Assembly: GCA_964503335.1 (NCBI GenBank) | Contig: CAZCZZ010000002.1 | Span: 50,164-114,163 of the forward strand | DNA from: an uncultured Verrucomicrobiota bacterium | GTDB taxonomy: Bacteria; Verrucomicrobiota; Kiritimatiellia; CAIVKH01 | DNA: 64,000 nt | Direction of reading: 5' to 3' | Shown: piece by piece, positions 2,663 through 47,100 of the stretch | Layout of the letters: every line of letters starts with the position of its first letter | Position numbering within the stretch: the stretch's first letter is position 1 | The notes under the pieces: model-generated | The model's database searches: none | What the model saw: only the letters and a program-made list of their open reading frames with translations | Told to the model about the DNA's origin: nothing | Position numbers and translations under genes: made by a program

Positions 2663-5600
2663 GTGAGGACTCTTGTGAAGAATATGGGATATGTCTTGCG
2701 CGGTGTGGTGATGGGTTTTGCGGGGGCAGTGCTCCTTGCCAGTCCCGTCAAAGCCGAAGTGATCCTGCAATTCTTCAACAATTCGTGGAACGAGATCACC
2801 GAGAAGCTGCCCGAGATTGCCGAGGTGGGTTACACCGCGCTCTGGCTCCCGCCGCCGCAGAAGGCCAGCGGTGATCTTTCCGTCGGGTATGACCTTTGGG
2901 ATCCCTTCGACCTTGGCAACAAGTCGCAGCGCGGAGGCCGGACGCGTTATGGCAACGAGGATGACCTGCTCCGCCTGATCGAGACGGCGCACCGCTTCGG
3001 CATCCGTGTCTATTTCGACAACATCATGAACCACCGGGCGTTCGACATTCCCGGCTACAACGAATTCACGCCCATCGACATCTACCCGGGCATGCTTCCC
3101 GAGGACTTCCACCTGCGCGTGACGGAGGACGGCTTCTATCGTCCCTGGGGCGACACCGCCAACTGGGGCAACACCTGGGAAGTGCAAAACCAGTTTCTCT
3201 CCGGCCTGATCGATATCGCCCACGAATCGCCGAACAGCAACTTCGGGCCCACGCTGGGCTCCACGCATCCCAAGATCCAATTTGTCCGCCATCCGCAGAA
3301 TCCGGAGTATTACGACTATCACCCCACGCTGGGCTACGTCGGCTTCGGCAATACGAACATCACGACGACGCTCATCACGAACAACCCGAACTTCTTCAAG
3401 GAAGACGTCGGGGGCTACATGATGCGCTCGGTGCGGTGGCTGATGGATCGCACGAAGGTGGACGGCCTTCGCCTCGACGCCGTGAAGCACGTGCCAGCCT
3501 ACTTCTTCGGCGAGCAGTGGGCATCGGGCAAGGACACCAACTCGGCAGGCTATTGCGGCCAGGCCCAGTGGCAGTTCAACAAGACCCGCGGCTTCAGCGA
3601 TGCGAACCACCGCGACACGGTATTCGACTCCGAGCAGCCGCGCGACGATGCGATGATGTTCGGCGAGCACATGGGTGAGCCGCCGCCTTACGACGAGTAC
3701 TTTGCCTCCGGCATGCGCCTCATTGACGCAAAGATCCACCAGACCCTGAATGACGTGCTCGGCAATCCGGGCCGCACGCTGCTGGGGCTGGAGAACGACG
3801 GCTATTCCGCGGGCTTCCAGTTCGGCGCCTATCTCGGCGTTCCGTATGCGAAGAGCCATGACGACGCCGTGGCCTATCGCGAGGAGTTGCACAACGCGAT
3901 CAACCTGACGCGGCGCGGCCTCCCGAACATCTATACCGACGGCAACCGCCAGGCCGAAACACTCGGTGAAAGCGGCGGCGCCTTCCCGCGTCACGCGAAC
4001 ACCAAGCCCTTCGGCCAGTTCGGCGACAACCGCATCCCCAATCTCGTCTACATCCACAACCAGTTTGCGCGCGGCGACCAAGTCGGGCGGCAGACGGACG
4101 GCGATGTCCTTGCCTACGAACGTCGCGACAAGCGTGAGAACTGGGACATGAGCAATGCCGAGGGCACGACGCTGCTGATGCTGATCAACGACAACTATGC
4201 GGGCGGCCAGTATCGCGAAATCCCGACCACGTTCCCCGATGGGTCGTGGCTGTGGCAGTACTCATCAGCCGGTCCCGGCTTCTACTACAAGGTTACGAAC
4301 GGGCAGGTTAGGGTGACCACGCCGCCCGGCGGCTACTTCGCCTTCTCGTGGCGCAATCCCGAGGCGTCCGACCTTTGGGGCTCGGCGGGTGGTCGTCCGC
4401 TGCAGATTTACCAGAACGGTCAGGAACCCGGCTTCATTTCGTATGTGCGCAAGGAAGGTCCCGACGGTGATCCTGCGTTCAACCCGTACGGCGTGTTCGA
4501 TTCCAACAAGACGGACTTTGCCTACACCTACTATGTGCCGCGCGTGACGACGGCCACGAACCTTCGCTTCGCCGCGCGCGTGGACGGTTCCGCCTACAAT
4601 GTCATGATGAAACTCGACGGCGGCGTGCCGATGAACACGGCGAGCCACGGCGGCGGCGATGCGCGCGACAATCCGCCGGCGCTTTCGTCGGATGTGTATC
4701 TCGGCTACGAGCAGGCCGACTTCAAGCACCGCATCCATCGCGAGAAATTCGCGGCGCGCAATACGATCAGCAACAACGTCATCGGGTCCGGCGGCGCCGA
4801 GACCTACACGTTCACCGTGGGTGTTTCCAACTACGTGATCAATGCGGGCATCACGAACAAGGACAGCGACCTTGAAACGGCGGAATTTGTCTATCACGAC
4901 CCGAACGGTTCCACCGACCACGGCTATTCGCAGTTCTGGCCGAAGCCCGAGAACGCGGCGGGCGGCGATATCTACGTGTGGGCCAAGGCCGGATTCAGCG
5001 GCGAAGTGAACCGCGTGTTCATGTACTACACGACGGACGGCATTTCCTGGCCTGAGGGCGCGGGTGGCGAAGGCACCGGCAGCACGAAGGTCAAGGAGAT
5101 GACGCTCGGCTTCACGACGAACTTCCAGTCCTGGTACACGACCGCCACGCCGATTCCCGGCGTCGCATCCGGAACGGTGTTCCGCTACAAGATCGGCGCT
5201 TATCGCGAGCAGGGCTACCTCGGCGCCCCGTGGGTTGTGCGCTTCCCCAACTCCGAATACGACATCAACAACAAGAAGAGCATGATGGGCGTCTGGCAAT
5301 TGACGAATGTCAACGTGTCGTCGTCGGTCTATCGCCCTCACAACGACTACGGCATGAGTACGACCGGCCTCGTCGAAGGATTCCACACAATCAGCGCCCG
5401 GGCCTTCCTGCAGCGCGAGGGCTCAGCCGGCGGCAACGGCAAGATGTCCGCGATCTACAACACCCTCCAGCAGACGTTCTACCTCGACACGAAGACGCCG
5501 GAAGGCGAGATCAAGTATCCTGTCGAGAACGAGACGCTCTTCGACAACCGCTACGGTGCCGTCATCCGGACGGATCCGACCGTGACCGAGGTCTGGTACA

Positions 5601-8600
5601 ACATCCTCGACAACAACGCGCTGAACGACGACGGGCAGACGGGACAGTCCCAGGGCAATGGCACGAACGCCCTTGGCCAATCGTCATGGGTCAAGGCGCA
5701 GCGCGTGACGCCGACGATCGGGCTTATCAGCCAGTACCCGCTGGAGTGGCGCCTCAACTACAACAACGTCGCATCGAACGGAACGGCCGCGATCCAGGTG
5801 AAGCTTGCCGAGTTGTCTTCGTCCACCAACCCGCTGCTCTCCGACGTATCGGGCCACTTCCGAACGCTGACCCGCAATGTCAACGCGAATGGTCCTGCAT
5901 ACTCGATGTTTGTCGGCTGGCCGCAGAAGGACGGGGACACGGTCGGCGTGCCCTACAACATGAAGCTCTACTTCAGCCAGGCGCTGTGGAACTCCGACGA
6001 AGAGACTATTCGCAACCGCTTCCTCATCACGATCGACGGCGTGGCGCAGGGCCGCAGCGGCTACGACCTGAACTGGCAGGCCGGGCCGAACGGCATGCAC
6101 GAACTCGCATTCGACCTTCCCGACCTCTACAACGGCGATCCGAACTACCTGCATGAAATCGTCATCACGCACACCAACGCCGGCGGTGGCGGCATCACCT
6201 TGTACGGCAGCCGCTATGTGAAGGCTGCGAAGTCAACGACCGGCGCCACGGTCACGATTGTGGATCCGCCGGAGTTCAACCTCGACGGCGCGCCGTATGC
6301 GATCGTCCTGCCCGATGTGCCGAACCCCACGGCTCAGCAGCGCCAGTATAGCATCCGCGTACAGACGGATTCATCGGCGAAAAGCGTCTGGATTGAATTC
6401 ACGAACTCCGTGGGCTTCACAACGTCGATGCCCGGTTCGACCAATGCCCTGACCGGCACGGTCGCCGTCGTAGCGGGCAGCGCGAACGTGGTCGGGTCCG
6501 GCACGCTCTTCGACAGCCAGGTCACGGTCGGCAGCATCCTGCGCATCAGCACCAACCTCGCGATGGTATCGCGAATTGACTCGGCCACGAACCTCGTGCT
6601 GCGCGAGCCCTATCCCGGTCCCACGGCGGGCGGCTTGTCCGTCGATGTCGTTACAGGCAATCCGCTGCGAAATGGCAGCAAGCTGTTTTGGAACTTCTAC
6701 TGGACGAACATCACCACGGCGGGCTCCTACACGCTGATCGCAAAGGTCGATACGAACAACAATCCCTCGACGGTGGAGGCACAGGCCAGCCGGACCACGC
6801 GCGTCGTCTTCCGCGACTCCGTGTCGGGCGACATGGATTACGATGACGATGACGACGGCTTGATGGACGCCTCCGAGCTTGCGAGCACCAACCTGCCATC
6901 CACGAATCCGGAAACCTGGAACAACGGCCAGGTCCACATCTGGTACGTGTACGGCAAGACGGACCCCATGCTGCCGGACACGGATGGTGACGGACTTCCC
7001 GACGGCCTGGAAAGCGGCTGGCGCGGTGCCGATCCGGGCAACACGCAGACGAATACCGACACGAACGGCGACGGCTTCCCGAACTTCCGCGGCGACCGCG
7101 ACCCGCCGTTCTTCAACACGGTTCCCGATAACTGGGACGTGCCGGACTACAACTTCAACGACAGCCGCACGAAGCTCATCGCGGGATCGATGACCGATCC
7201 CAATAACGCAGACAGCGACAGCGACGGCCTGCCTGACGGGATTGAGGACAAGAATCGCAACGGTTGGGTGGATGGCGATGGCCTGGGACTCGGACCCGAT
7301 GATCCGAAGTCGGCGCGCCCCAATGCCGGCGACTGGCCCGACGGCATCGAGCAAAGCTGGGAAACATGGAGCGAGACGGATCCGAACAACTCGGATACCG
7401 ACGGCGACGGTGACGTCGATGGCCACGGCGAAGACAAGAACTTCAACGGCCGGATCGACGGCGACGCCAATTCAAATCGCGTGTGGAATGCCGGCGAGCT
7501 GTGGATTGAGACGGATCCCCTGAACGCAGACACGGACGGCGACGGCCTTCCGGACGGCTGGGAAACGCGCTACGGTCTCGATCCTTGGGACAGTGGCATC
7601 ATCGGTCAGATCAACCGCCGCACAGGTGCGACCATCACCAACGCGCTGAACGGAGCCGACGGCAACCCGGACGGCGATGTGATCGTGGTCGGCATCGCGA
7701 CGAATCCGTACAGCAATATCCTCGAGTTCCAGAATTCGACGCATCCCTTCATTACGGACAATGGCTCGCAGCCTCCCGCCGGCTCCGTGGTGATAGGACG
7801 CGGCCAGGTCCTGGGCGTTCTGGGCGGCGTCACGAACTACCAGGAATTCACCGAGTGGACGGCGGACGACCTGCTCGCCCTTGACGAATACGAAGGCGAT
7901 GGATTCAACGATGAAGGCGGCGACGTCAACCCGTCCTGGGTTGATATGGGCAACAACAACTGGCAGTTGGACGGCTTCGACACGTCGCGCGACATCGTGG
8001 CGTTCTATGCTCGCGACGGCGGGAACTCCGACGGGAAGTTCTACTTCCGCCTCGACTTCAATGACCTCCAGGCCTTTGCCGAAGACACCTATCTCGACAT
8101 CTACGTGGTCATCGACACGGGACAGCCGGGCGTCGGCGAGGTGAATCTGCCCGACGACGTCGATCTCACGACGGACATGAAGTGGGAGCTCGTTGTTGCC
8201 GCCTACAAGAGCGGACAGGGTGCCGTCTACGTCGATACGGATCACATCAACAACACAACCGCCGAGGGGCAGGCCTTGGATGCATCTGTCGGTGTCATCC
8301 GCCGCGATCAATCCACCGCCTCGGGCTTCATTGATGCGTACTACAATTCCGAGATGGATGCCGTCGAATTCTCCATCAGTCGTCAGGCCCTGATCGACGC
8401 GGGCTGGAATGGCCTGAATCCCGACACGCTGAACTACCAGGTGTTCGTCACAAAGGACGGCACGTGCAACTCGTGCGGCGCGGGCGGAAAAGCCGGTCCG
8501 GGCGATCTCGGCGGCCGTAACGATATTCGCGACACGATCTATGACGACGGGCTTGCCGAGGACAAGGGTGACAAGCAGGCGGGCATCGATGACATCCTCC

Positions 8601-11122
8601 ATTCCTGGATTCCGGGCACCAGTTCTCCGAATCTCGCGAAGCTCGCGATGATCGTGCACGGCAACCAGGCGATCCAGCCCGGCAGTATCGTGCAGAGCCT
8701 GATCAACAACGGATCGGGCGCCGGATACTACCGCCCCCTCGACGTGCACCAGCTCTACAAGCGCAAGCTCAGCCTGCACGTCACGCCGACGCTCGCCTCT
8801 GCCATCGAGTGGGCAAAGGCTGATCCCAATGGCCCGAAGCCGTGGCTCGACGGTCCCACCTTCAACGCGTGGATCGCCACGCTGGTCCAGACGAACCTCG
8901 TCGATCTCTTCGCAAGCACGTTCTCCGACCACGCGCTCCCGTACTTCACACCCGAAGCGATCCGCGACAATGTCTCGCTCGCCAAGGACGTGCTGCAGTC
9001 CATCTACAACACGACGATCACGTCGAACTCGGTATTCTGGACGCCTGAACGGCTCCTCGACCACGACGTTTTCACGAAGATCGCGACCGCCGGGTACCGG
9101 TCCACAGTCCTCGACCAGGCAGAGCATCTGGTGAAATGGTTTGACCGCACCGAGGCGCTCGGCACACGCGGCTACCAGATGAATCGCATCAGCGGCATCA
9201 CCACGTTTGCGATCAATAACAACGCGAGCGATTTCCGATTCCAGAACAACGACAAGGGCCTTGTCATGGCGCTGCGCCGCCTCTTCAGCCGCAAGGCGCG
9301 AAGTGGCGAGAAGGACCAGGTCGTTACGCTCTTCAGCAACTGGGAAGATTTCGGCAACAAGGCGAATGCCGACGCGTACGACACAAACATGCGCTGGATC
9401 GCAAACCATCCCTGGATCCAGGTCACGACACCCGAAGCGATCCTCAACGGCAACGTGGACATCTCAGGCGACGGCCAGGGAGATCCCTGGTACGTGCAGG
9501 AGCGCGGGAACCTGACGGGCGGCCAGACCAAGACCTCGCACAACTACATCAACTACGCGTCCGAATTGAACTACGACAATTGGTATCTCGGCTCGGCACA
9601 GGAAGAAGGCCTGCTCAACAAGCGTTTCGAAATCCGGCCCGGCGTCCTCGTTCCCGGCATCTACGGCATGCTTTACAGCGGAGGCGTGGTTTCACAGACA
9701 TGGGCGAATGTGTTGACCATGGGCGACACCAACCTCGCGCGACTCGCGCGCGGTGCATTCCATGCATCCACATTCCAGTCGGCGTTCCACAACCAGGGCA
9801 CACTGGATCTCTCAAAGTACAGCGACGGCCGTTACATCAACCCCGACTCGACCAGCAACACGCTTGCAGGCTTCGTCAAGCCCGCGCAGTCCCAGACGCG
9901 CATGGCAGCAATCTACAAGCGAATCGACCAGTGGGCCGCGGCCGCCTCAGGCATCACGACACCTCAGACCTCGACCGAGGATGTGGACCTGGATGGCGAA
10001 TCCGAGTACCTCCTGTTCAACGATCGACTCTGCGGCCTGTTCGAGCGGGTGGGCGGACGACTTGTCGGTGCCTGGACGCGCGACATCCACAGCGGGCGCG
10101 TTTTCCAGGGAATCGGCAACCAGATCAGCTACGCCGGTTCCGACACCGAGCATGAAGGCACGTATAACTCCGACACGAACGGCTCGCTGGGTTCCTATCG
10201 CACCTCGGGCCTCAAGGATTGGTATGTCGCGGGCGGCAGCTACGTGAACGACCTCTACAGCTTCACGAATCAGCCCTCCGGCTGGCTCATCACCTCGAGT
10301 GACGGCAAGATCAAGAAGACCGTCACCCTCGCTGCAAAGAGTTGGGCCTTTGAAGTGAACTACGTGTTGTCCGGATCGCTCACCAATCAGCCTCTGTACA
10401 TCCGCCATGGATTCTCGCCAAACCTCTGGGATCTCGTCGTGCGCGGGCAGCGAACGCTCAGCGGCATCACAAACAGTGGTGGCGTGGTAAGCCTCGCGAA
10501 CACGAACTACAGCCACACAGTAATTACGTATGTCGGCTGCAGTGACGCAGGACACACGACCGGACATAACCCGCTCGCGGAGGACGACAATCCCGCGACG
10601 GGACGTCAGTTCGCCACGTTCAATATGCGGAACCAGGCGCAGACGCATCAGGTCGAGATCGTGGGCACCAACGCCTTCGCGTTCTCACTCGGCCTTCGTG
10701 CCTTTGGCTCGGACTGGGACGCCGACGGCCTGCCGAACGACTTCGAAGATGGCAACGGCCTGAACTCGACGAACGCTGCAGACGGGAATGCCGACACGGA
10801 CGGCGATGGCATGAAGGCCTGGCAGGAGTATGTCGCCGGCACAGCGGCCAACAATGGAAACGAATACTTCGACGTGGTCGACTCGCTGCGAACGAACAGC
10901 GCCTATGTAACAGTTCGCTTCCCGACCTCGCTGCAGCGCGAATATCGCATCTGGTACGCGAACAACGGTCTCCTGGCCCCGACATGGACGTTGGCGACCA
11001 CAAATCCCGTTGCCGGCACGGGCGGAATTGTGGAGTGGTACGACAACGGCACGCAAACGTCGCCTCATCCGTCGACCATGACCAACCGCTTCTACCGCAT
11101 CGACGTCCGCCTGCCGCAGTAG
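2663..11122 (+). CDS. Giant secreted glycoside hydrolase (2819 aa): signal peptide, GH13 alpha-amylase catalytic domain, TSP3-like Ca2+-binding DxDxDG repeats, GH57-like domain, and a dockerin-like C-terminal module. The start may be GTG 2663 or ATG 2684.
   Basis: GH13 signatures 'GYTALWLPPP', 'GIRVYFDNIMNH', 'VDGLRLDAVKHV'. Repeated 'DTDGDGLPDG', 'DSDSDGLPDG', 'DTDGDGDVDG' loops at ~6830-7590. GH57-like motifs 'WTPERLL' (WxPE nucleophile motif) and 'SNWEDFG' (DGEKFG-like) at ~9030-9360. N-terminal 'GFAGAVLLASPVKA' is a signal peptide. Confidence 0.85.
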   Translation: MRTLVKNMGYVLRGVVMGFAGAVLLASPVKAEVILQFFNNSWNEITEKLPEIAEVGYTALWLPPPQKASGDLSVGYDLWDPFDLGNKSQRGGRTRYGNEDDLLRLIETAHRFGIRVYFDNIMNHRAFDIPGYNEFTPIDIYPGMLPEDFHLRVTEDGFYRPWGDTANWGNTWEVQNQFLSGLIDIAHESPNSNFGPTLGSTHPKIQFVRHPQNPEYYDYHPTLGYVGFGNTNITTTLITNNPNFFKEDVGGYMMRSVRWLMDRTKVDGLRLDAVKHVPAYFFGEQWASGKDTNSAGYCGQAQWQFNKTRGFSDANHRDTVFDSEQPRDDAMMFGEHMGEPPPYDEYFASGMRLIDAKIHQTLNDVLGNPGRTLLGLENDGYSAGFQFGAYLGVPYAKSHDDAVAYREELHNAINLTRRGLPNIYTDGNRQAETLGESGGAFPRHANTKPFGQFGDNRIPNLVYIHNQFARGDQVGRQTDGDVLAYERRDKRENWDMSNAEGTTLLMLINDNYAGGQYREIPTTFPDGSWLWQYSSAGPGFYYKVTNGQVRVTTPPGGYFAFSWRNPEASDLWGSAGGRPLQIYQNGQEPGFISYVRKEGPDGDPAFNPYGVFDSNKTDFAYTYYVPRVTTATNLRFAARVDGSAYNVMMKLDGGVPMNTASHGGGDARDNPPALSSDVYLGYEQADFKHRIHREKFAARNTISNNVIGSGGAETYTFTVGVSNYVINAGITNKDSDLETAEFVYHDPNGSTDHGYSQFWPKPENAAGGDIYVWAKAGFSGEVNRVFMYYTTDGISWPEGAGGEGTGSTKVKEMTLGFTTNFQSWYTTATPIPGVASGTVFRYKIGAYREQGYLGAPWVVRFPNSEYDINNKKSMMGVWQLTNVNVSSSVYRPHNDYGMSTTGLVEGFHTISARAFLQREGSAGGNGKMSAIYNTLQQTFYLDTKTPEGEIKYPVENETLFDNRYGAVIRTDPTVTEVWYNILDNNALNDDGQTGQSQGNGTNALGQSSWVKAQRVTPTIGLISQYPLEWRLNYNNVASNGTAAIQVKLAELSSSTNPLLSDVSGHFRTLTRNVNANGPAYSMFVGWPQKDGDTVGVPYNMKLYFSQALWNSDEETIRNRFLITIDGVAQGRSGYDLNWQAGPNGMHELAFDLPDLYNGDPNYLHEIVITHTNAGGGGITLYGSRYVKAAKSTTGATVTIVDPPEFNLDGAPYAIVLPDVPNPTAQQRQYSIRVQTDSSAKSVWIEFTNSVGFTTSMPGSTNALTGTVAVVAGSANVVGSGTLFDSQVTVGSILRISTNLAMVSRIDSATNLVLREPYPGPTAGGLSVDVVTGNPLRNGSKLFWNFYWTNITTAGSYTLIAKVDTNNNPSTVEAQASRTTRVVFRDSVSGDMDYDDDDDGLMDASELASTNLPSTNPETWNNGQVHIWYVYGKTDPMLPDTDGDGLPDGLESGWRGADPGNTQTNTDTNGDGFPNFRGDRDPPFFNTVPDNWDVPDYNFNDSRTKLIAGSMTDPNNADSDSDGLPDGIEDKNRNGWVDGDGLGLGPDDPKSARPNAGDWPDGIEQSWETWSETDPNNSDTDGDGDVDGHGEDKNFNGRIDGDANSNRVWNAGELWIETDPLNADTDGDGLPDGWETRYGLDPWDSGIIGQINRRTGATITNALNGADGNPDGDVIVVGIATNPYSNILEFQNSTHPFITDNGSQPPAGSVVIGRGQVLGVLGGVTNYQEFTEWTADDLLALDEYEGDGFNDEGGDVNPSWVDMGNNNWQLDGFDTSRDIVAFYARDGGNSDGKFYFRLDFNDLQAFAEDTYLDIYVVIDTGQPGVGEVNLPDDVDLTTDMKWELVVAAYKSGQGAVYVDTDHINNTTAEGQALDASVGVIRRDQSTASGFIDAYYNSEMDAVEFSISRQALIDAGWNGLNPDTLNYQVFVTKDGTCNSCGAGGKAGPGDLGGRNDIRDTIYDDGLAEDKGDKQAGIDDILHSWIPGTSSPNLAKLAMIVHGNQAIQPGSIVQSLINNGSGAGYYRPLDVHQLYKRKLSLHVTPTLASAIEWAKADPNGPKPWLDGPTFNAWIATLVQTNLVDLFASTFSDHALPYFTPEAIRDNVSLAKDVLQSIYNTTITSNSVFWTPERLLDHDVFTKIATAGYRSTVLDQAEHLVKWFDRTEALGTRGYQMNRISGITTFAINNNASDFRFQNNDKGLVMALRRLFSRKARSGEKDQVVTLFSNWEDFGNKANADAYDTNMRWIANHPWIQVTTPEAILNGNVDISGDGQGDPWYVQERGNLTGGQTKTSHNYINYASELNYDNWYLGSAQEEGLLNKRFEIRPGVLVPGIYGMLYSGGVVSQTWANVLTMGDTNLARLARGAFHASTFQSAFHNQGTLDLSKYSDGRYINPDSTSNTLAGFVKPAQSQTRMAAIYKRIDQWAAAASGITTPQTSTEDVDLDGESEYLLFNDRLCGLFERVGGRLVGAWTRDIHSGRVFQGIGNQISYAGSDTEHEGTYNSDTNGSLGSYRTSGLKDWYVAGGSYVNDLYSFTNQPSGWLITSSDGKIKKTVTLAAKSWAFEVNYVLSGSLTNQPLYIRHGFSPNLWDLVVRGQRTLSGITNSGGVVSLANTNYSHTVITYVGCSDAGHTTGHNPLAEDDNPATGRQFATFNMRNQAQTHQVEIVGTNAFAFSLGLRAFGSDWDADGLPNDFEDGNGLNSTNAADGNADTDGDGMKAWQEYVAGTAANNGNEYFDVVDSLRTNSAYVTVRFPTSLQREYRIWYANNGLLAPTWTLATTNPVAGTGGIVEWYDNGTQTSPHPSTMTNRFYRIDVRLPQ
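2750..4100 (+). other. GH13 alpha-amylase catalytic domain within the 2663-11122 CDS (approximate boundaries).
   Basis: Conserved GH13 regions I-IV recognisable in the translation ('DNIMNH', 'GLRLDAVKH', 'EHMGE', 'SHDD'). Confidence 0.7.
6830..7590 (+). other. Thrombospondin-type-3-like / EF-hand-like Ca2+-binding repeat region within the 2663-11122 CDS.
   Basis: At least six DxDxDG(L/V)PDG loops read in the translation between 'DMDYDDDDDG' and 'DADTDGDGLPDGWETRYGLDPWD'. Confidence 0.6.
8590..10450 (+). other. GH57-like domain within the 2663-11122 CDS (approximate boundaries).
   Basis: 'IVHGNQAIQ' (HQP-region-like), 'WTPERLLDHD' and 'NWEDFGNKANADAY' resemble GH57 conserved motifs I, III and IV. 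Confidence 0.5.
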
Positions 11123-37307: not shown

Positions 37308-38180
37308 GTGATGACCAGATCTGGGCTCAATTTATTGCCGGGGTGTATCGTTTTACTTGGCTCGCTGTTTGCAGGCTTTGTAGAGGCGCAGGATTTTCCT
37401 CTCTACGTCGCATCGAAGTATGTCATCGAGGATGAGGATGATCAGCCACTTCGGGGACTCGATCCAGCGGGAGAGGCCCTTGGACTCCCGAGGGAGAAGG
37501 GTGCCGTCGTTCAAATCCTCGGCGCAAGCGCCGGAATCTTCCCGCCCAATGCCGACGGTTCGCCCAATCTGCAGAATCCCTTGCTGGGCACTACACGTAC
37601 TGGCATCGGTGCCGCTCTTTCGCTCTCTGCGCGCGGTCGATTTGGCGCGACCGTTGTGCCCCGACCCACAACGCCTGTATTCGTCCGCGTATTTAATGGG
37701 CCGGAACTCGCGCTTGCGACGCGTTATGGCGATTCCCAGACCTTTGTGAGCGTGGACAACACGCCGTTTCTCGCCGACATCGAGGAGACGGGCGCTGCAT
37801 TTGCGACGGACAGCGATGGCGACGGACTGAACAACTACTACGAGGGCCTGCTCGGCTCAAACGCCAACCTGACCGACAGCGATGGCGACGGCGTGGCGGA
37901 CGGAGACGAGTACCGCGCTGGCTCTGGAATCGCCAACCCCTCCTCGTTCCTCGGCATCACCACGTTGAAGAAGGAAGCTTCCGGTTTCTGGACCATCGGT
38001 TGGGAATCCTCGACCGGGCGCACCTACTGCGTCGAATACAGCGGAATCGGCCTCTGCCAGGGACCAATCTACTCGATGGTCTGTCCCATGGTCACCGCTA
38101 CGAGCACCACGACCACCGTCCAGGCATCGATCCCCGGATCCGGCGGCGACGGCCATTTCCGCGTGAGGTTGATGGAATGA
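37308..38180 (+). CDS. Small secreted protein (290 aa) with a signal peptide and a dockerin-like double Ca2+-loop C-terminal module. Its stop overlaps the start of the downstream giant gene.
   Basis: N-terminal 'LNLLPGCIVLLGSLFAGFVEA' signal peptide; 'DSDGDGLNNYYEGLLGSNANLTDSDGDGVADGDEY' double loop. The TGA at 38178-38180 overlaps the ATG at 38177-38179. Confidence 0.7.
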   Translation: MMTRSGLNLLPGCIVLLGSLFAGFVEAQDFPLYVASKYVIEDEDDQPLRGLDPAGEALGLPREKGAVVQILGASAGIFPPNADGSPNLQNPLLGTTRTGIGAALSLSARGRFGATVVPRPTTPVFVRVFNGPELALATRYGDSQTFVSVDNTPFLADIEETGAAFATDSDGDGLNNYYEGLLGSNANLTDSDGDGVADGDEYRAGSGIANPSSFLGITTLKKEASGFWTIGWESSTGRTYCVEYSGIGLCQGPIYSMVCPMVTATSTTTTVQASIPGSGGDGHFRVRLME

Positions 38181-41100
38181 TTTCTCGTGATTCCCAAGCA
38201 GATGAAACGCGCGGACTTGGGGTTGAATATCCAATCCGGTGGAGCATAAATGTGGCTATAGAACCCAGATCGGATCGTCATGCCCGATCCACGTGCCTGC
38301 GACAAAGAGGATGGGCGACACATTCCGCGCTTCGCGTCGCGGCGCTCGCCACGGTCCTGACGGGGTCCGTCAGTCATGCAGAATTGCTGCTGGGGTTCGA
38401 TCTGCTGGGTCAAGGCGGTTCTCAAGTAACGACTACCAACACGGTTGCTGCAGCGAACATCTCGACGGCAGCGCCTAATGCCCGAATCACGAGGGGTTCG
38501 GGGCTTCAGTCAAGCACGGCAAGTGATTCCATGTCGTCCAGCAGCTGGACTTTGCCTGGGGCTGCCACGGTTGCGAATGCCATTACCAGTAATGACTATT
38601 TTACGGTGAGAGTGGTTCCTGAAGCGGGTTATCTTATCGACGTTACCAACTTCTCGTGGAGAACAACGCGAAGCGGGACAGGACCGACCAACTACAACCT
38701 TCGCGCCGGCAACGACGGTTTCGCGTCTGATATAGCGACTTGGCTCAACAAGGGTACTACGTCCAACTTCGTGACCACTGTCAACATTACCGGCTCCACA
38801 GGCGTGGAGTTCAGAATCTACGGCTACAGCACCCACAACAACGGCGGTACTGCACGAATCGCTCATGGTGCCGATTTTGGTCAATCGGGAATCGACTTGG
38901 CCATATTTGGCACGGTGAATGCGTCAGGTCCGGATGTTGGAGTCCTGGGTAATAACACGCTGGTCGCTGACGGCGACACTACGCCCGCCTATGCGGATCA
39001 TACCGATTTCGGAAACGTCGGACTCAATCAATCCAATCTGGTCCGTACTTTCACGATCACAAACAGTGGAACGGCTTCGTTGGGGGTTGGTAACATTACG
39101 ACGTCCGGAACTCATGCAGCGGACTTCATTGTGATCGCTCAGCCCTCGAACGCTCTTGCGGCTGGCACCATCTCCACCTTCCAAGTGCGCTTCGATCCGT
39201 CGGCCACCGGCACCCGCACCGCGACGATCCAGTTCACGAATGATGCAGCCGGCAAGTCACCCTACGACTTTGTCGTCCAGGGCACTGGCGTTGCTGCGGG
39301 TATCCTTCGCAGTCCGACGTCGATCACCGTCACGACGATGGTGGGCACAGCGCTCGGGACATCCAGCTTCGGGGTTACGAATGTCGGCCTCGGTCGCCTC
39401 GACTACACGATTTCGACAAACGCCGCGTGGCTCTCCGTATCGCCGACCTCAGCCAATCTCGCGGAAACGGGAGGGCAGCAGGAGACGATCACCTATAGCG
39501 TGACAGGACTCTCCGGCGGCACGTCCAACGCGACGGTCACGATCACGGATTCCAACGCATCCAACAGCCCGCAGACCGTCAGCGTCTCTCTCGTGCTCAC
39601 CAACATTCCCGATCCCACGGCGCAGAGTGCAACGGGTGATGGCAAGGAGATGATGCGGCTTGCGTGGACCAAGCACAGCTCCTTCAACGTGATGATTGTC
39701 TACCAGCTCGGCAGCGCCCCGGCCTCGCCCCAGCAGGGAACAGCCTACAGCGTGGGCGACAGCGTCTCCGGCGGCGGCACGGTCGTCTACAGCGGCACGG
39801 GTGCCACCCTTGAGCACGTCGTGCGGACCAATGCAACGCACTACTACGCGTTCTACTCGATCAACAATAACCACTACTCGCCGGGCGTCTCCGCGAACGC
39901 GGCCACGCCGGCTTATGGCGACGGGGAGATCGTGGACGCCATCGCGTACACCAACGGTGTGACAATCAACGGGGTGAACGGCGGCAACGGCTGGACCAGC
40001 GCGTGGTCCGTCGGTTCCGGCACGTGGACTGCGGAAACGTCCTCGCTGACCGTCGAAACCAACTACCCGACCGAGTATGCCAACCGCATCCGCGTGGCCG
40101 ATCCGGGCAACGGCGGCCAACCCTATGCGACGCGCAAATTCGCAGCACAGTCAAGCGGCACGCTCTATATGGCAGCTATCGTCAGCTACCAGTATCAGGG
40201 CCCGTGGAAGTTCGCTGGCTTCTCCTTTGTCTCGAATGCCACCGAGAAGGTCTTCATCGGCAAGATCCCGAACAGCGAGAACAACCGCTTCGGCTTGACG
40301 TCCACGCGGAATGCGACGGATTACAAGACGTCCGGCGTGACCCTTGGCGACTTCAACACCAGCACCGGCAACGTGTACCTGATGATCGGCACGTATGACT
40401 TCAGCACGCGCGACTTCAAGGCCAAGGTCTATCTGCGCACCACCGTCGTGCCCGAGACGGAACCGGGATCGTGGGATGTGGCGACCAATCTGCCCGCCAA
40501 TTACGCCAACAGCATCGACGGTATCCGGCTTGCATCCGGCGCATTGGGTGCTCCCGATGGAAGCATCGGCCAGACCCTTTATGACGAAATTCGCGTCGCC
40601 ACCAACTGGGCCGGCTTGCTGCGCATCGTGGCCGAACCGGAAATCGCCGTGCTGGGAACGAACAATGCCGTGGTGACGTCGGGCGATGCCTCGCCGGCGA
40701 CAGCGGATGGCACCGACTTCGGAAACGTTAACTTTGCCGGCAGTGTGAGTTTCACCAACGTCTTCTCGATCACGAATTCCGGCAACGCCAACCTCGTGCT
40801 CACCAGCATCAGCACAAGCAGCGCCATGGGCGCGAGCGCGGACTTTACGGTGATCTCGTGGCCGACGACCGTCCTGGCGGGAACGCGGTCGAATCTTGTC
40901 ATCGCCTTCAACCCTGAAACCACGGGCCTGCGCACCGCGCTTGTCAGCATCGCAAACAACGACTCCGACGAGAATCCTTACACCTTCGTCGTGCAGGGCA
41001 CAGGCACCGGCTATTTCGAGACCATCACGTTCCAGGGCTTCGAGGGATCGGGTACCGACACCTGGAATTACCTGTTCGTTTCAAACAACCCCGGAACGGA

Positions 41101-44100
41101 AATCTATGTCGATGGATCCACGAACGCCTCGGGCCTTTACGCCGTGGCCCTGCGTGGGTCGGCGAGTTCGAACGCCGATCCGTATGTCGAATTCGACAAC
41201 ATCGACATCAGCGCCTACGCCGTTGTGACCCTGCAGGTGGCGTTCGCAGTCGCCGGGATCGACAGCGGAGACGATCTCGAGCTGGATCTCTCCTACGATG
41301 GCGGAACAACGTGGAACGGACCCGGCAGCACGACGCTCGTCTTCGGCGCCAACAACACCAATCTCGGGTTCACGGGCATCGGTTCCACCACGGTGGCTTC
41401 GAATCCCTGGTTTGTGAGCCTGCCATCGACATCGAAGCAGGTGAAGGTGCGCATCCGGTTGGACGAATCGTCGAATGACAACTCGTTTGATCGCACCTTT
41501 GCTGACAATATCCGCCTTACCGGCGCGAATGCGGCGCCGCGCGTCCGCTTCAGTGCGGCGACGTACTACACCACGGAAACCAACGGCACAGTGACCATAC
41601 CGGTCACCATTTCCTCCTCCGCAGATGCCACCGTCCGCGTTGCGCTCGCCGGGTCGGCCCTGATCAACAGCACCAACGACTACACCGTCAACGGAACGAA
41701 CATCATCTTCGCGGCCGGCGGGACGACGACGTCGAACGTCGTGTTGACCCTGGTCGACGACACGGCCGCCGAAGGCCTCGAGGAGATCAACCTGCAGCTC
41801 GTGAATGGGCAGGGGACCGTGCCGGGTGATTCCGCTGTCACCGTGGTGCTGTTGCAGGATGACGATGCGTTTAGCGTCATGTCAGCCAACCTTACTGCCG
41901 GAACCAACATCGTCGACGGCACCTACACGTATGACGAAACGGCGCAGCGCATCATCCGCCGGCTTCGCCCGGACGTGCTGGCGATCCAGGAGTGGAAGTT
42001 CACCAACGCAAGTGCGCGTGCCTTCGTCGATTCCGTCCTTGGCACGAACTACTACTACTACATCGAGCCGGAGTCCGATCCCAACCCGATCCCGAACGGC
42101 GTCATCAGCCGCTGGCCGATCACCGTTTCCAACCAGTGGACTGACACGTTCGTGGGCGCCCGCGACCATGTGCAGGTGACCATCGACATTCCTGGTCCGC
42201 GTGACCTCCATGTAGTCTCGACACATCTCAAGGCAGGCACTTCGGATGCAGCCACGCGCCTTGACCAGGTGCGGGAACTCACCAACTACATCGCGACGGC
42301 GGCGTTCCCTACGAACGACTACCTCGTTGTGGCTGGCGACTTGAACCTGACGAACCGCACAGAGACGACGTTTGTCGTTCTGACGCAGGTGGTCACCGAT
42401 GCGCGGCAACCGGCCGATACGGAGGGCAACGTCAATTCAAGCCTCGGGAAGACCTCGCCCTTCGACCATGTCCTCCCGAACAACGTGCTCAACAACGTGC
42501 ACCTGACGAACCGCATGGCCGGCTTTGCCTTCACGAACGGCATGATCTTCGACACGGCCCAGTTCGACGATCACCTGCTCCCTGCGCTGGTGGAAGATTC
42601 CTATCCCACGAATCGCGCCCATCACGCCGTGCTCAAGCTCTTCAACTTGTCCACCGCCGCCGTGCCTCCCACCGTCACGACCACGATCGCATCCGCGACG
42701 AATCTCACGACGGCGACATCCGGCGGCAACGTTACATCAGACGGGGGTGCCTCTGTCACGAATCGCGGCGTCGTCTGGAGCACGAGTCCGGGTCCAACGG
42801 TCCCCGGACTGCAGACCACCAACGGCACAGGAACGGGCAGCTTCTCCTCGACGCTCACCAACCTGACTCCGGGCGGAACGTACTATTACAAGGCGTTCGC
42901 TCAGAACAGCGTCGGCACGGGCTACGGCGCCGAATACTCCCTCACGACGCCGTGCTTCTCGGGCATTGTCACCGGCCTTCTGGTCACCGTCACCAACGAC
43001 ATCGACTTCACGCTCACATGGAGCAATGTGCAGTATGCGACAGGATTCCAGCTCGATGTAGCCACCTCGGCGACATTCAGCACATCGGGTACGCAGGACG
43101 ATTTCACGGACGGCGACTTTACCAATAACCCTGCGTGGTCGGGCGACGCGACGGGCTATACGAATCTCACGGCTGGAACTTTACCGAGTGGTGTAGCCTC
43201 CACTGACGGAAATTACATCGGCAATCCCGCGTCGACCTCCGGCAACAACATCATGACCATCGCCTCGAGCGAGACGTCGGAATGGCGCTTCTCCCTGGGC
43301 AGTACGACCTTCAGCCCCTCGTCCGCCAATCACTTCGGCGTGATTCTCATGTCGGACAATGCTGTCCAGGGCGATGTCACGACAAACAGCTTCAACGGCT
43401 ACTATCTCCGTGTGGGTGTTGACGGCGCCACGGACTACCTTGAACTGTGGCGGAGCTCAGGCACGACCAAGACGAAGATCGGTGACTACACCACGCCGGG
43501 CAATTTCGGCGCCGACGGGCTTGAAGACGGTCTGGACCTGCGCATCACACGCAACGGAAGCGGCGTCTTCGAGCTGTTCTACGCTACCGGGTTCACGTAC
43601 GCCTCCACACCGACCAGCAACGGAGGAACGCTAACCAATACGACACATTCCAGCTCCTCCTACTTCGGCGTCTATTCGCGCTTCGCCAACACGGGTCGTC
43701 GCGTCTACATCGACAATATCCAGCTAGGGTCGGGCTCAAGTTCATATGTTGCAGGCTATTCAAACCGGGCAGTCGGCGCGACAAGCGCGACGGTGACCGG
43801 ACTAACCTCCGGTGCGACGTACTACTATCGCGTCCGTGCCACAAACGAATACTGCGTGAGCGCCAATTCCGTGACCGGCACCGTGACCACGGTGCTTCTG
43901 GCGCCGGACATCGCCGTCTATGGCAACAACACGCTGATTGCGGACGGCGACACGACGCCGGCTTATGCGGACCACACCGATTTCGGAAGCGTCGGCTTCA
44001 TCAACTCGAACCTTGTGCGCACGTTCACGATCACCAATACCGGCACGGGTTCACTCACCCTGGCCAACGTCACCACGAGCGGAACGGCTGCGGCGGACTT

Positions 44101-47100
44101 TATTGTGCTGTCGCAACCATCTACACCGGTCGCCGCGGGCGGAACCACGACGTTCCAACTTCGATTTGATCCGTCAGCGACGGGATTGCGCACGGCGACC
44201 GTCCAGTTTGCGAACAACGTAACCGGGAAGAATCCCTACGACTTCGTGGTGCAGGGCACGGGCGTTGCGGCGGGCATCCTGCGCAGCCCGACCAGCATCA
44301 GCGTGACGTCGATGGTGGGCAGCGCCCCGGCGGCGGCAGGGTTCGGCGTGACGAATGTCGGCCTGGGCCAGCTCATCTACACGATCAGCACCAACGCCCC
44401 GTGGCTCTCGGTGAGCCCGACCGGCGACACGCTCTGGGAGACGGAGGGCCAGCAGCACACGGTGAGCTTCAGCGTGACCGGATATGGCGCGGGGACTTCG
44501 AATGCCACGGTCACGATCACGGACAGCAACGCGTCGAACAGTCCTCAAACGATCGCGGTGTCGATGGTTCTGACCAATATCCCGGATGCCACCTCGAACG
44601 TGGCCACGAACGACGGAAGTGAACTGATCCGTATTGCGTGGACAAAGCCCGGGAGTCTCGATGTCATGATCGTGCACCGCGGTACCAATGCGCCCGTCGC
44701 GCCGACGCAGGGCACTGCGTACAACGTGGGCGACGCCGTCGGATCCGGTGGCGGTCGCGTCGTGTATAAGGGTGGCGGCGCGTACCTTGATCACGTTGTC
44801 AACCCGGGTAGCGACAATTACTACGTCTTCTACGCCGTGAACAACAACCACTACTCGCCCGGAGTCACGAACGTGGCGACGACACCGGCCTACGGCGCGA
44901 GCGAGCGCGTGGAGCAGTTCGGCTATACCAACGGCGTGTCGTTGAGCGGGCTTGGCGGGGGCAATCTCTTCACGAGCACCTGGTCGGTGGGGGCGGGCAA
45001 CTTCACGGTCCTGAGCAATGGCCCGACGCCGAACCTTTACGCCAACACCAATTATTCGGCCGAGGCGGCGCAGCGCGTGGTGAGCAGCAACTACGTCAAC
45101 GACACCGAAATGCGCGCGAGCCGGCGCTTTGCGGCGATCACCAATGGCTCAATCTACATCTCGTACCTCGTCGCCGTGGAATACGGTGGCGCGGGCAAGT
45201 ACACGGGCGTCCGCGCGTTGTCGAACACCACGGAACGATTCTTCGTCGGCGAAGGCGGAGGCAATGACCTGCTCGCCATCGATGGCTACGGAGGTGGCAT
45301 CCAGAACACGGCCTTCAACATCAACTCCTTCCAGTCGAATACCGGAAACGTCTACCTCGTCGTCGCACGCTATATTTTCAGCAGCAACCATGTCTCTGTG
45401 AAGGGCTACTACCGGACCGATACCGTGCCCGAGGCGGAGCCGGCGAGTTGGGATACATCCGTAACGGCCAGCAGCGACCGGTCGTACATCGACGGCATTG
45501 AAATCGTCAGCGGCGGCTTCTCCGGCAACCAACCAGGCCTTGTGGCCTTTGATGAAATCCGCGTCTCGACCAACTGGGCGGGCATCGTTCCTCCGTCGGG
45601 TGTCCCCGGAATCGGTGTCAATCCCTCCAGCGTGACGGTGTCGGTCATGCGCGGCTCAAGTCCTGCCGCCCAGACGTTCACCGTGACGAATGTCGGCCAG
45701 GGCGCCCTCAATTACAGCATCTCAACGAGCGTGAGCTGGATAGCCGTCGCACCGGTTGCCGGGTCGTTATCGGCCTTCCTGGGGCAGATCCACACCTCGT
45801 CGTTCAACACCGTTTCTCTCCCCGTCGGCACGAATATCGCCACGGTGACCGTCACGGCACCGCTTGCGTCCAACTCGCCGGTCACGGTCACCTACAACGT
45901 CATTGTGACGAACATTCCGCCGCCCACGAACGTGATCGCCAGCGCCGATGGCTACGAGATGGTCCGCCTCGGGTGGTCCCCGCCGCCCGGCCTGCCGACC
46001 GTGATGATCCTGCACGACGATGTGCCGATTGCCACGGATCCCTCGCAGGGAACGCTATACAATGTGGACAGCGCGGTGGGGCTCGCGCGCGTCATCTACA
46101 AGGGAACGAACACGTCGCTGGAGCACATCGTGGCGCCGGGATCCACGAACCACTACGCATTCTACGCGGTGAACGGGAACTACTATTCCACGGATGGTTC
46201 GTACACCGTCATCGAGTGTCCGGACACGACCGCGACCAACCTTGTAGCCGGTGACATTGCCATCTTCGGCTTGAACACGCTGACATCCGGCAGCACCAAC
46301 TACGACAGCTTCGGGTTCATCACGCTCACGGACCTGCCGACGGGGACGGCGATCAACTTCACCGACAATGGCTGGCGGAGCAACGACACCTTCAGGACCG
46401 GTGAGGGAACGATCACATGGTCGGCCACGAGTTGCGTGCCTGCGGGAACGGTGATCCGCTGGATCTCGACGAACACCCCGCAGGTCACGGTCGGAAGCAT
46501 CACGACCAATTCCTCATTCGCCCCGAATATCGACGGCGAGCAGGTGCTGGCCTACCAGGGCCCGGCAACCAACCCCACGTTCATCTATGCCCTCGGATCG
46601 CACACCGATGGCGTCTGGCACGTTGACGCGACGGATACGCATGAGTCCGCCTTGCCGCGTGGATTGACGAACGGCCTGACGGCCGTCGTCATCGCCGAGC
46701 TCAACAATGTTGTCATCAGCACAAACACGCTGGCGATTTCGGGCGATCGCGCCGCCATCCTCTCCTACTTTGGCAACACGAACAACTGGGTGGGCGATGA
46801 CAGCATCATCTTCGACCTCCTTGCGTACAACTTCTCGTTCCCCGACCTGAACACCAGCGGCGGCGGCGTGATGACCAATGTCACGATGGGCTTGTACCGT
46901 ACGAACGAAATCGTCGATGTGTTCGCGTACACGAATGGAAACTCGATCTCCTCGCCGGCGCGAAACGGTGGTTGGGGCTGGACCTCGACCTGGACCGGAG
47001 CGGCGGGAACGTGGACAGCCCTCACGAACAACACCGCCGAGATCTCCTTCCCCTCACAGCCCCTGTATCCGACGAATGCTGCAAATATCCTCAAGCTCAC

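Follow-up and report, generated by a model that had tools for sequence, protein, structure and literature searches.

Does a giant bacterial protein that joins an alpha-amylase of family GH13 to a relative of family GH57 carry two enzymes, or one enzyme and a domain that holds the sugar? The question arises from a window of 64,000 nucleotides from an uncultured Verrucomicrobiota bacterium (GenBank assembly GCA_964503335.1, contig CAZCZZ010000002.1, positions 50,164 to 114,163 of the forward strand), in which an uninterrupted open reading frame (ORF) on the + strand, 2663..11122, specifies 2819 residues counted from a GTG codon at 2663. Positions below are those of the window, and residue numbers count from this GTG (the 2819-residue frame). 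A sequence-only reading of the window had described one polypeptide with a complete GH13 core and a GH57-type domain, and this description is borne out: PF00128 (GH13) matches with 57.1 bits against a cut-off of 22, PF03065 (GH57) matches with 35.0 bits (E 1.3e-8) against a cut-off of 21.2, and the motifs that it had quoted, GH13 regions I-IV together with WTPERLL and NWEDFG, are found in their places. One enzyme with a sugar-holding domain is nonetheless the probable arrangement, rather than two enzymes, because the GH57 relative lacks one of the two catalytic residues. Under the account favoured here, to which about an even chance is given, the protein is a secreted alpha-amylase that is carried on a stalk and tethered to the cell, with a GH57-like module that holds alpha-glucan chains without cutting them.

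GH57 is defined by a (beta/alpha)7 barrel with a Glu nucleophile on strand beta4 and an Asp proton donor on strand beta7, and by five conserved sequence regions (CSRs) (PMC6037648). The module and the two motifs aligned with these residues are the following:

8630..10717 (residues 1990-2685), + strand: GH57-like module of the 4-alpha-glucanotransferase type, with barrel, helical region and C-terminal beta-sandwich, from PF03065, AF2, Foldseek and hhalign
9038..9058 (residues 2126-2132), + strand: CSR-3-like motif WTPERLL, in which hhalign sets E2129 at the nucleophile Glu123 of the Thermococcus litoralis enzyme
9332..9355, + strand: CSR-4-like motif FSNWEDFG, in which hhalign sets N2226 at the proton-donor Asp214 and E2228 at Glu216

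The module is a true, distant homologue of GH57, since Pfam, Foldseek and profile-profile alignment agree. Both checks that the sequence-only reading had proposed for its GH57 call, a profile search and a structure prediction, came out in its favour, and the outcome that it had named as a refutation, the lack of a significant GH57 profile match, did not occur. Along the protein the PF03065 match runs from residue 2072 to 2260, and along the profile from position 95 to 278 of 291. Among the orthologues only about half have such a match on record, so that the GH57 signal is borderline across the orthologue family. At the level of fold, the AF2 model of the module, built on 15 sequences (pLDDT 72, pTM 0.75, with low confidence near residues 2129-2131), has as its best Foldseek match 1k1x, the GH57 4-alpha-glucanotransferase of T. 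litoralis, with E 2e-18 over the whole length. Next in the ranking come GH38 mannosidases, which have the same fold arrangement, followed by GH57 branching enzymes and one GH57 amylopullulanase; the GH57 structures matched are 1k1x, 1ufa, 3p0b, 5wu7, 9jlq and 4cmr. The (beta/alpha)7 barrel and helical bundle of GH57 are thus predicted from a model of moderate confidence and its Foldseek matches. Whether one sequence of the module or a profile of 15 was used, sequence searches of the PDB gave no GH57 chain, so that homology had to be established by fold search and profile-profile alignment. For the latter, 80 genome loci with GH57 genes of the 4-alpha-glucanotransferase type yielded 71 full-length canonical proteins; a search seeded by a 115-residue T. 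litoralis fragment returned only fragments of less than 200 residues, stopping before CSR-4. Aligned by hhalign with the orthologue alignment, the 71 canonical proteins match with 98.6% probability (E 7.5e-15) over 591 columns. GH38 has no Pfam match in the protein.

The same alignment shows what the module has kept of the GH57 active site. In CSR-4, canonical ADDGEKFG is paired with FSNWEDFG, so that only E, F and G are kept and Asp214 is replaced by Asn2226 (NWEDFG occupies residues 2226-2231, from nucleotide 9338). The other four regions compare as follows:

CSR-1: canonical HnHQP, here HGNQA; the second His (H13) is replaced by N2001
CSR-2: canonical Glu (E79), here a hydrophobic residue; lost
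CSR-3: canonical WLaER, here WTPER; kept
CSR-5: canonical QCNcaYWH, here STFQSAFH; the His alone remains, with Ser/Thr in place of the CSR-5 Asp

Residue conservation was read from an alignment of 120 sequences, consisting of the window protein and 119 orthologues. These come from a search of 5.8 billion proteins (threshold E<=1e-5), which gave 817 matches, the best 120 of which were taken for comparison. E2129, at the nucleophile position, is invariant (120/120), as are H1999, N2001, D2089, W2126, D2151, H2155 and H2376 of the module pocket, while R2130 and W2227 are near-invariant. Position 2226 is occupied by Asn in 96 sequences, Ser in 6, Gly in 4 and Asp in 4, with the remainder scattered over H, P, R, A, T, M and W; Asp is therefore absent, and the residue non-acidic, in 116 of the 120. 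E2228 is Glu in 111. By hhalign, neither the proton-donor Asp of CSR-4 nor the full set of five CSRs is present. Judged by its sequence, the module is a GH57 homologue that fails a defining catalytic feature, because the proton-donor Asp of the family definition (PMC6037648) is replaced by Asn2226, and it most likely no longer hydrolyses. For bacterial GH57 'like' proteins without the catalytic residue(s), typical GH57 action has been called 'very probably' impossible (PMC6037648). Two claims of the sequence-only reading lose their footing here. A working GH57 enzyme is not supported, in view of the non-acidic residue at the proton-donor position and the degraded CSR-1, CSR-2 and CSR-5, and a 'dual mechanism' does not apply, given that GH13 and GH57 both act by retaining double displacement (PMC6037648).

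It is a real if minor possibility that the protein has two enzymes after all, in that the module would still work as a retaining glycosidase or transglycosylase, with Glu2228 or Asp2229 serving as the acid/base in place of position 2226. An endo-amylase head would then be joined to a second alpha-glucan-processing activity near the cell. The invariance of E2129 and of many pocket residues speaks for such an enzyme, as does the position of E2228, the counterpart of Glu216 of T. litoralis, which lies just past the strand modelled at residues 2221-2226 and, being two residues on, should face as residue 2226 does. In addition, every orthologue aligned has at least one carboxylate within residues 2226-2229. 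Of the four sequences that have Asp2226, three are without Glu2228 (SDWGD twice, ADWSA), against 6 of the 116 others, a hint of a possible either/or carboxylate (sites 9335-9346, residues 2225-2228) that comes from very few sequences and is uncorrected for phylogeny. However, 2226 and 2228 both vary, as E2129 and the GH13 catalytic residues do not, and in six orthologues both positions are without a carboxylate. An exchange of Asp for Asn at the acid/base is, moreover, the classic inactivating change, and a GH38 acid-base mutant of this type, D341N, is among the PDB entries returned by the fold search. Slightly less probable is a fuller version of this explanation, in which the acid/base would have hopped to the Glu two residues on, defining a new GH57 subfamily or family. 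The active module would then be part of a two-headed, cell-tethered and conserved core processor of Kiritimatiellia, with a distal GH13 endo-amylase that passes chains on to a proximal GH57-type transferase or hydrolase at the cell surface.

That the module holds alpha-glucans without cleaving them, as preferred here, is easier to place once its relatives are considered. An exhaustive HMMER scan with the module profile against 1.84 billion cluster representatives (E<=0.001) returned 308 relatives, and canonical GH57 enzymes were not joined to them by sequence. The family, a narrow one, includes proteins of 900-1000 residues without GH13 and large proteins of other architectures. The few relatives whose names were checked are all called 'hypothetical protein'. 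Among the representatives that cover the motifs, 26 form a distant clade with WxPERV and F-D-D-W-E-A/K, in which both catalytic residues are intact; unlike this clade, the GH13-bearing giants have S-N-W-E-D and variants at CSR-4. Aligned with canonical GH57, the intact clade reaches an hhalign probability of 99.4%, with DDWE paired with DDGE. The PF03065 scores of two distant relatives, P0194 and P0260, are 50-53 bits, and P0194 finds 1k1w by phmmer with E 0.006, pairing WPPERV with WLTERV.

The domain that lies before the module accompanies it throughout the family:

7835..8527 (residues 1725-1955), + strand: domain of about 230 residues before the module, found by hmmsearch of the module representatives with a domain profile

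It directly precedes the GH57-like module in all architectures, stand-alone relatives included, and residues 1690-1960 have no Pfam and no PDB match. Outside the window, the proteins P0156, P0169 and P0187 (2058-2400 residues) combine an FDDWE module with an N-terminal canonical GH57 domain, and are two-GH57 counterparts of the giants that combine GH13 with the GH57-like module. The starch-binding modules CBM53 and CBM25 are above threshold in P0156 and P0187, with a weak CBM53 match alone in P0169, and one relative of the module carries a glucan-water-dikinase immunoglobulin-like (Ig-like) domain. Drawn from domain co-occurrence among the module relatives, the general plan would be an N-terminal GH13 or GH57 catalytic domain, followed by spacers or carbohydrate-binding modules, and then by the domain of about 230 residues with the GH57-like module. 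Read in this way, the proton donor would have been lost in the branch that the giants form.

The relatives also bear on a less probable explanation, that the module acts on or binds some other glycan, or that the whole protein has a cell-envelope or structural role instead of one in feeding. GH57 includes alpha-galactosidases, its fold is common to the GH38 alpha-mannosidases that gave the second-best fold matches, canonical GH57 was not reached by the scan that found the 308 representatives, and no PDB sequence matches. The high conservation of the gene and its setting among housekeeping genes could likewise speak for other glycans or a structural role. Nevertheless, the best fold and profile matches are of the 4-alpha-glucanotransferase type, which acts on alpha-1,4-glucans, relatives of the module bear CBM25 and CBM53, the module is here joined to an intact alpha-amylase, and a GH38 Pfam match is absent. 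Hardly credible, finally, is that the GH57 call is spurious, the module being a mere GH13 accessory domain, or that assembly or fusion produced the long ORF as an artefact: although the PF03065 match is modest (35 bits), covers part of the profile and is found in about half of the orthologues, GH57 homology is given independently by Pfam, Foldseek and the 591-column hhalign alignment (98.6%, with 99.4% for the intact relatives), which refutes a spurious match, distant relatives score 50-53 bits on the same profile, the module occurs without GH13 in proteins of 900-1000 residues, and the same full-length ORF in at least 120 independent assemblies rules out an artefact.

Contrary to the module, the N-terminal part of the protein shows the complete catalytic equipment of its family. 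It consists of two features:

2684..2755 (residues 8-31), + strand: predicted Sec signal peptide, MGYVLRGVVMGFAGAVLLASPVKA followed by EV, read from the sequence
2756..4342 (residues 32-560), + strand: GH13 alpha-amylase catalytic module, from PF00128, NCBIfam and PDB profile matches

The N-terminal sequence suggests export by the Sec pathway, in line with the secreted or surface protein that had been proposed, which the stalk-like Ig domains described below also fit. The protein is not a lipoprotein, because the signal peptide contains no Cys. In the GH13 domain, NCBIfam alpha-amylase models match with a best E of 3.9e-32, and the family profile matches 43 PDB GH13 chains at E<=0.001. The nearest of these are 1mwo and 3bc9 (E 1e-29 to 1e-30; 7e-30 for 1mwo). 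Region I is DNIMNHR (residues 119-125), region II GLRLDAVKH (268-276), region III FGEHMG (333-338) and region IV KSHDD (397-401). Regions I, II and IV align with 1mwo and 3bc9, the PDB pairings being DGFRLDAVKH with DGLRLDAVKH in region II and FVANHD with YAKSHD in region IV; region III is identified by motif and order alone. The putative catalytic set comprises the nucleophile D272, the acid/base E335 and D400, together with H124 and H399. D119, N123, H124, R270, D272, K275, H276, E335, H399 and D400 do not vary in any of the 120 sequences. Significant alignment is confined to parts of the barrel, and the long stretch from region I to region II (residues 126-266) is without a PDB match. The GH13 head is probably a separate, divergent subgroup of the family, since the NCBIfam equivalog cut-offs are far from reached (111 against 516 bits). 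It is predicted to be a competent retaining alpha-amylase, and nothing argues against its activity.

Between the two glycosidase-type domains, and after the second, lie the following features:

4343..6832 (residues 561-1390, about 830 residues), + strand: all-beta stalk of tandem Ig-like sandwich domains, from AF2 and Foldseek
6443..6697 (residues 1261-1345), + strand: small domain inside the stalk, resembling the N-terminus of a phage distal tail protein
6833..7762 (residues 1391-1700, about 300 residues), + strand: TSP3-type acidic repeats, putatively calcium-binding, with DxDxDG loops and matches to CglD and MtsD
10712..10852 (residues 2684-2730), + strand: two C-terminal TSP3-type loops, with strict DxDxDG at residues 2684 and 2711
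10865..11119 (residues 2735-2819), + strand: C-terminal domain of about 85 residues, shared with ORF 55504-58197

The AF2 model of the stalk (m98a83ae62c08, pLDDT 67) is all-beta, and its top Foldseek matches are PrgB Ig-like domains, cadherins, an ice-binding adhesin and the S-layer protein SbsB; residues 561-1390 belong to no Pfam family. Within the stalk, a domain at 4934-5233 (residues 758-857), in which YYTTDGxSWPEGAGG can be read, has a weak match to the N-terminal domain of the solved alpha-amylase 8jnx_A (E 0.004) and may be a module of carbohydrate-binding type. The small domain at residues 1261-1345 matches 23gd_B, 'Distal tail protein gp20', by profile with E 1.6e-6 (1e-4 in a second search). 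It carries the motif GTVxVxxGSxxVxGxGTxF...YPGxTASG, and some orthologues have about 75-80 extra residues that repeat this motif.

The TSP3-type acidic repeats that set the two glycosidase-type domains apart had been foreseen, together with 'at least six' DxDxDG loops. The number holds with the relaxed pattern [DN]x[DN]x[DN]G, which gives ten loops over residues 1394-1671, and falls short with the strict one, which gives five (residues 1394, 1439, 1517, 1578 and 1623). PF18884 (TSP3_bac) stays below its cut-off in this region (17.9 against 25 bits), and over residues 1393-1648 the NCBIfam models of two TSP3-repeat proteins, CglD and MtsD, match with E 1.2e-20 and 3e-9. The 'dockerin-like' C-terminus of the same reading does not stand, as a search of the protein gave no PF00404 or other dockerin match in Pfam at E<=1. 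A pair of TSP3-type loops is found instead, which the central-repeat profile matches at residues 2686-2724 (in that search's own translation coordinates; i-E 0.0028), followed by the shared domain of about 85 residues, and on these grounds the tail is not read as a dockerin. The final domain matches the C-terminus of ORF 55504-58197 by BLASTP with E 2e-10 and by profile with E 2.3e-6, and it closes most representatives of the module family. The last 135 or so residues would form a putative lineage-specific sorting or anchoring module.

The gene itself probably starts slightly downstream of the GTG. ATG 2684 is the likelier start, because an NCBI protein of 100% identity, P0001, begins there with 2812 residues and because GAGGA lies 14 nt upstream; the true length is thus probably 2812 residues. 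The arrangement had been called 'unusual', which is not so if rare is meant. The protein has at least 120 full-length orthologues of 2747-3185 residues and 47-76% identity, nearly all aligning across the entire query, and their records, from metagenome-assembled genomes, carry the names 'Kiritimatiellia bacterium' or 'Lentisphaerae bacterium', by which the taxonomic range of the family is given here. Their products are called 'alpha-amylase family glycosyl hydrolase' or 'hypothetical protein'. The fusion of GH13 with the GH57-like module is thus a conserved trait of a bacterial class, neither an artefact nor rare.

The surroundings of the gene offer no partner. On the opposite strand are found an AraC-type regulator and a uracil phosphoribosyltransferase upstream, and endonuclease III and polynucleotide phosphorylase (PNPase) downstream. 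Comparison of the window, two orthologue loci and the surroundings of one stand-alone relative gave no conserved neighbours. An explanation by operon partners was dropped, since the neighbours differ among loci and are unrelated. Scans of both flanks detected no sigma-70-type promoter and no intrinsic terminator. The gene is a self-contained unit.

Further along the window, four other ORFs on the + strand are of note. The largest, 14946-37031, specifies 7361 residues, of which the first 4900 contain PATR (autotransporter-associated) repeats, two PLD-like stretches and HYDIN/DUF1573 Ig-like domains, and of which the last 170 or so look, by eye, like the C-terminus of the next giant. The latter, 38000-55474, specifies 5824 residues with an endonuclease/exonuclease/phosphatase domain, Calx-beta, BACON and several Ig-like domains, and looks like another hydrolase on a giant secreted scaffold. 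Judging by these sequences, enzymes on giant secreted Ig-rich scaffolds seem to be a theme of this genome. ORF 55504-58197 (897 residues) has Calx-beta, a signal-peptide-like N-terminus and a tail formed by a TSP3 loop and the final 85-residue domain. ORF 37308-38180 also has a signal-peptide-like N-terminus, and its tail shares mainly the TSP3 part. The tail common to ORFs of the window may be a lineage-specific sorting or anchoring signal.

Taken together, these features suggest how the protein could work. It would be exported through its Sec signal peptide, and its N-terminal GH13 domain, on the evidence of its sequence, would act as a retaining alpha-amylase. The Ig-like part of about 830 residues and the TSP3 repeats of about 300, the former with its fold class recognized, would form an extended stalk stiffened by calcium. 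The C-terminal third would descend from a starch-associated clade of GH57 relatives in which both catalytic residues are present. The module appears to have kept the nucleophile Glu and most pocket residues and to have lost the proton-donor Asp (Asn2226), here and in most orthologues, and would bind or hold alpha-glucan chains beside the cell, the cutting being done by the distal GH13 head. The last 135 or so residues, which are not a dockerin, would sort or anchor the protein.

Several observations weigh against this account. The invariance of E2129 and the constant carboxylate within residues 2226-2229 would also fit an active enzyme, and the model of the module is of only moderate confidence (pLDDT 72, low around residues 2129-2131). 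That the module belongs in an alpha-glucan setting is suggested by domain co-occurrence only, and surface tethering through the C-terminal domain is conjectural. The gene has no polysaccharide-utilisation context, its neighbours being housekeeping genes that are not kept between genomes. The strong conservation, which is unusual for a secreted carbohydrate-active enzyme, could mean that the protein serves something other than nutrition, such as the cell envelope.

The closest known counterpart of residues 1990-2685 is the GH57 4-alpha-glucanotransferase of T. litoralis (1K1W, 1K1X, 1K1Y), which has the same succession of barrel, helical region and C-terminal beta-sandwich, and whose nucleophile Glu123 in WLTERV aligns with E2129 in WTPERL. 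The two differ in that identity is about 12-18% and in that Asp214 there is Asn2226 here. Furthermore, a free-standing chain of about 650 residues in T. litoralis corresponds here to the tail of a secreted protein of 2,800 residues, behind an extra domain of 230. The 4-alpha-glucanotransferase-like and 'like' groups of GH57 (63 sequences; Martinovicova & Janecek 2018, PMC6037648) are bacterial and likewise without the catalytic residue(s), but that paper describes neither a GH13 fusion nor a giant architecture, and divergence in the module clade has gone so far that about half of its members escape PF03065. As for the GH13 head, the amylase of Pyrococcus woesei (1MWO), AmyB of Halothermothrix orenii (3BC9) and the liquefying Bacillus enzymes (1HVX, 1BLI) have the same Asp/Glu/Asp set with His, although the alignment is significant for some parts of the barrel only, residues 126-266 are unmatched and the equivalog cut-offs are missed.

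Large multi-module amylolytic proteins are well known, among them the two-GH13 amylopullulanases of bifidobacteria and the dockerin-bearing amylases of Ruminococcus bromii. A GlgB-MalQ fusion is a further multi-catalytic amylolytic enzyme (PMC11046441). As in such multi-catalytic or cell-anchored enzymes, the giant studied here puts more than one alpha-glucan-type module, with binding modules, on one large secreted or anchored chain; it differs from them in that evidence of a dockerin, cohesin, LPXTG or SLH element is absent from the protein and in that the second module is without its proton donor. Literature searches found no description of a GH13 and GH57(-like) pair on one chain, nor of this protein. 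For the loss of catalysis in a kept pocket, the chitinase-like lectins offer a parallel. In these GH18 pseudo-enzymes the glycosidase fold and the sugar pocket are kept and the catalytic acid is replaced, so that they bind and do not cleave. Their likeness to the module is a functional analogy only, the fold and family being unrelated.

No major concept would be changed by these findings, as multi-module amylases and glycoside hydrolase pseudo-enzymes are already known. They do expose a deeply divergent, unannotated clade related to GH57, whose older members appear to have both catalytic residues and starch-binding modules, and within it the protein is a natural Asp-to-Asn experiment on the GH57 proton donor. 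Kiritimatiellia are anaerobic glycan degraders, common in sediments, microbial mats and guts. If the account favoured here is true, a conserved giant enzyme at the cell surface would be common to them, cutting alpha-glucans at the end of a stalk that calcium stiffens, and a former second enzyme would have been recycled into a domain that holds the substrate.

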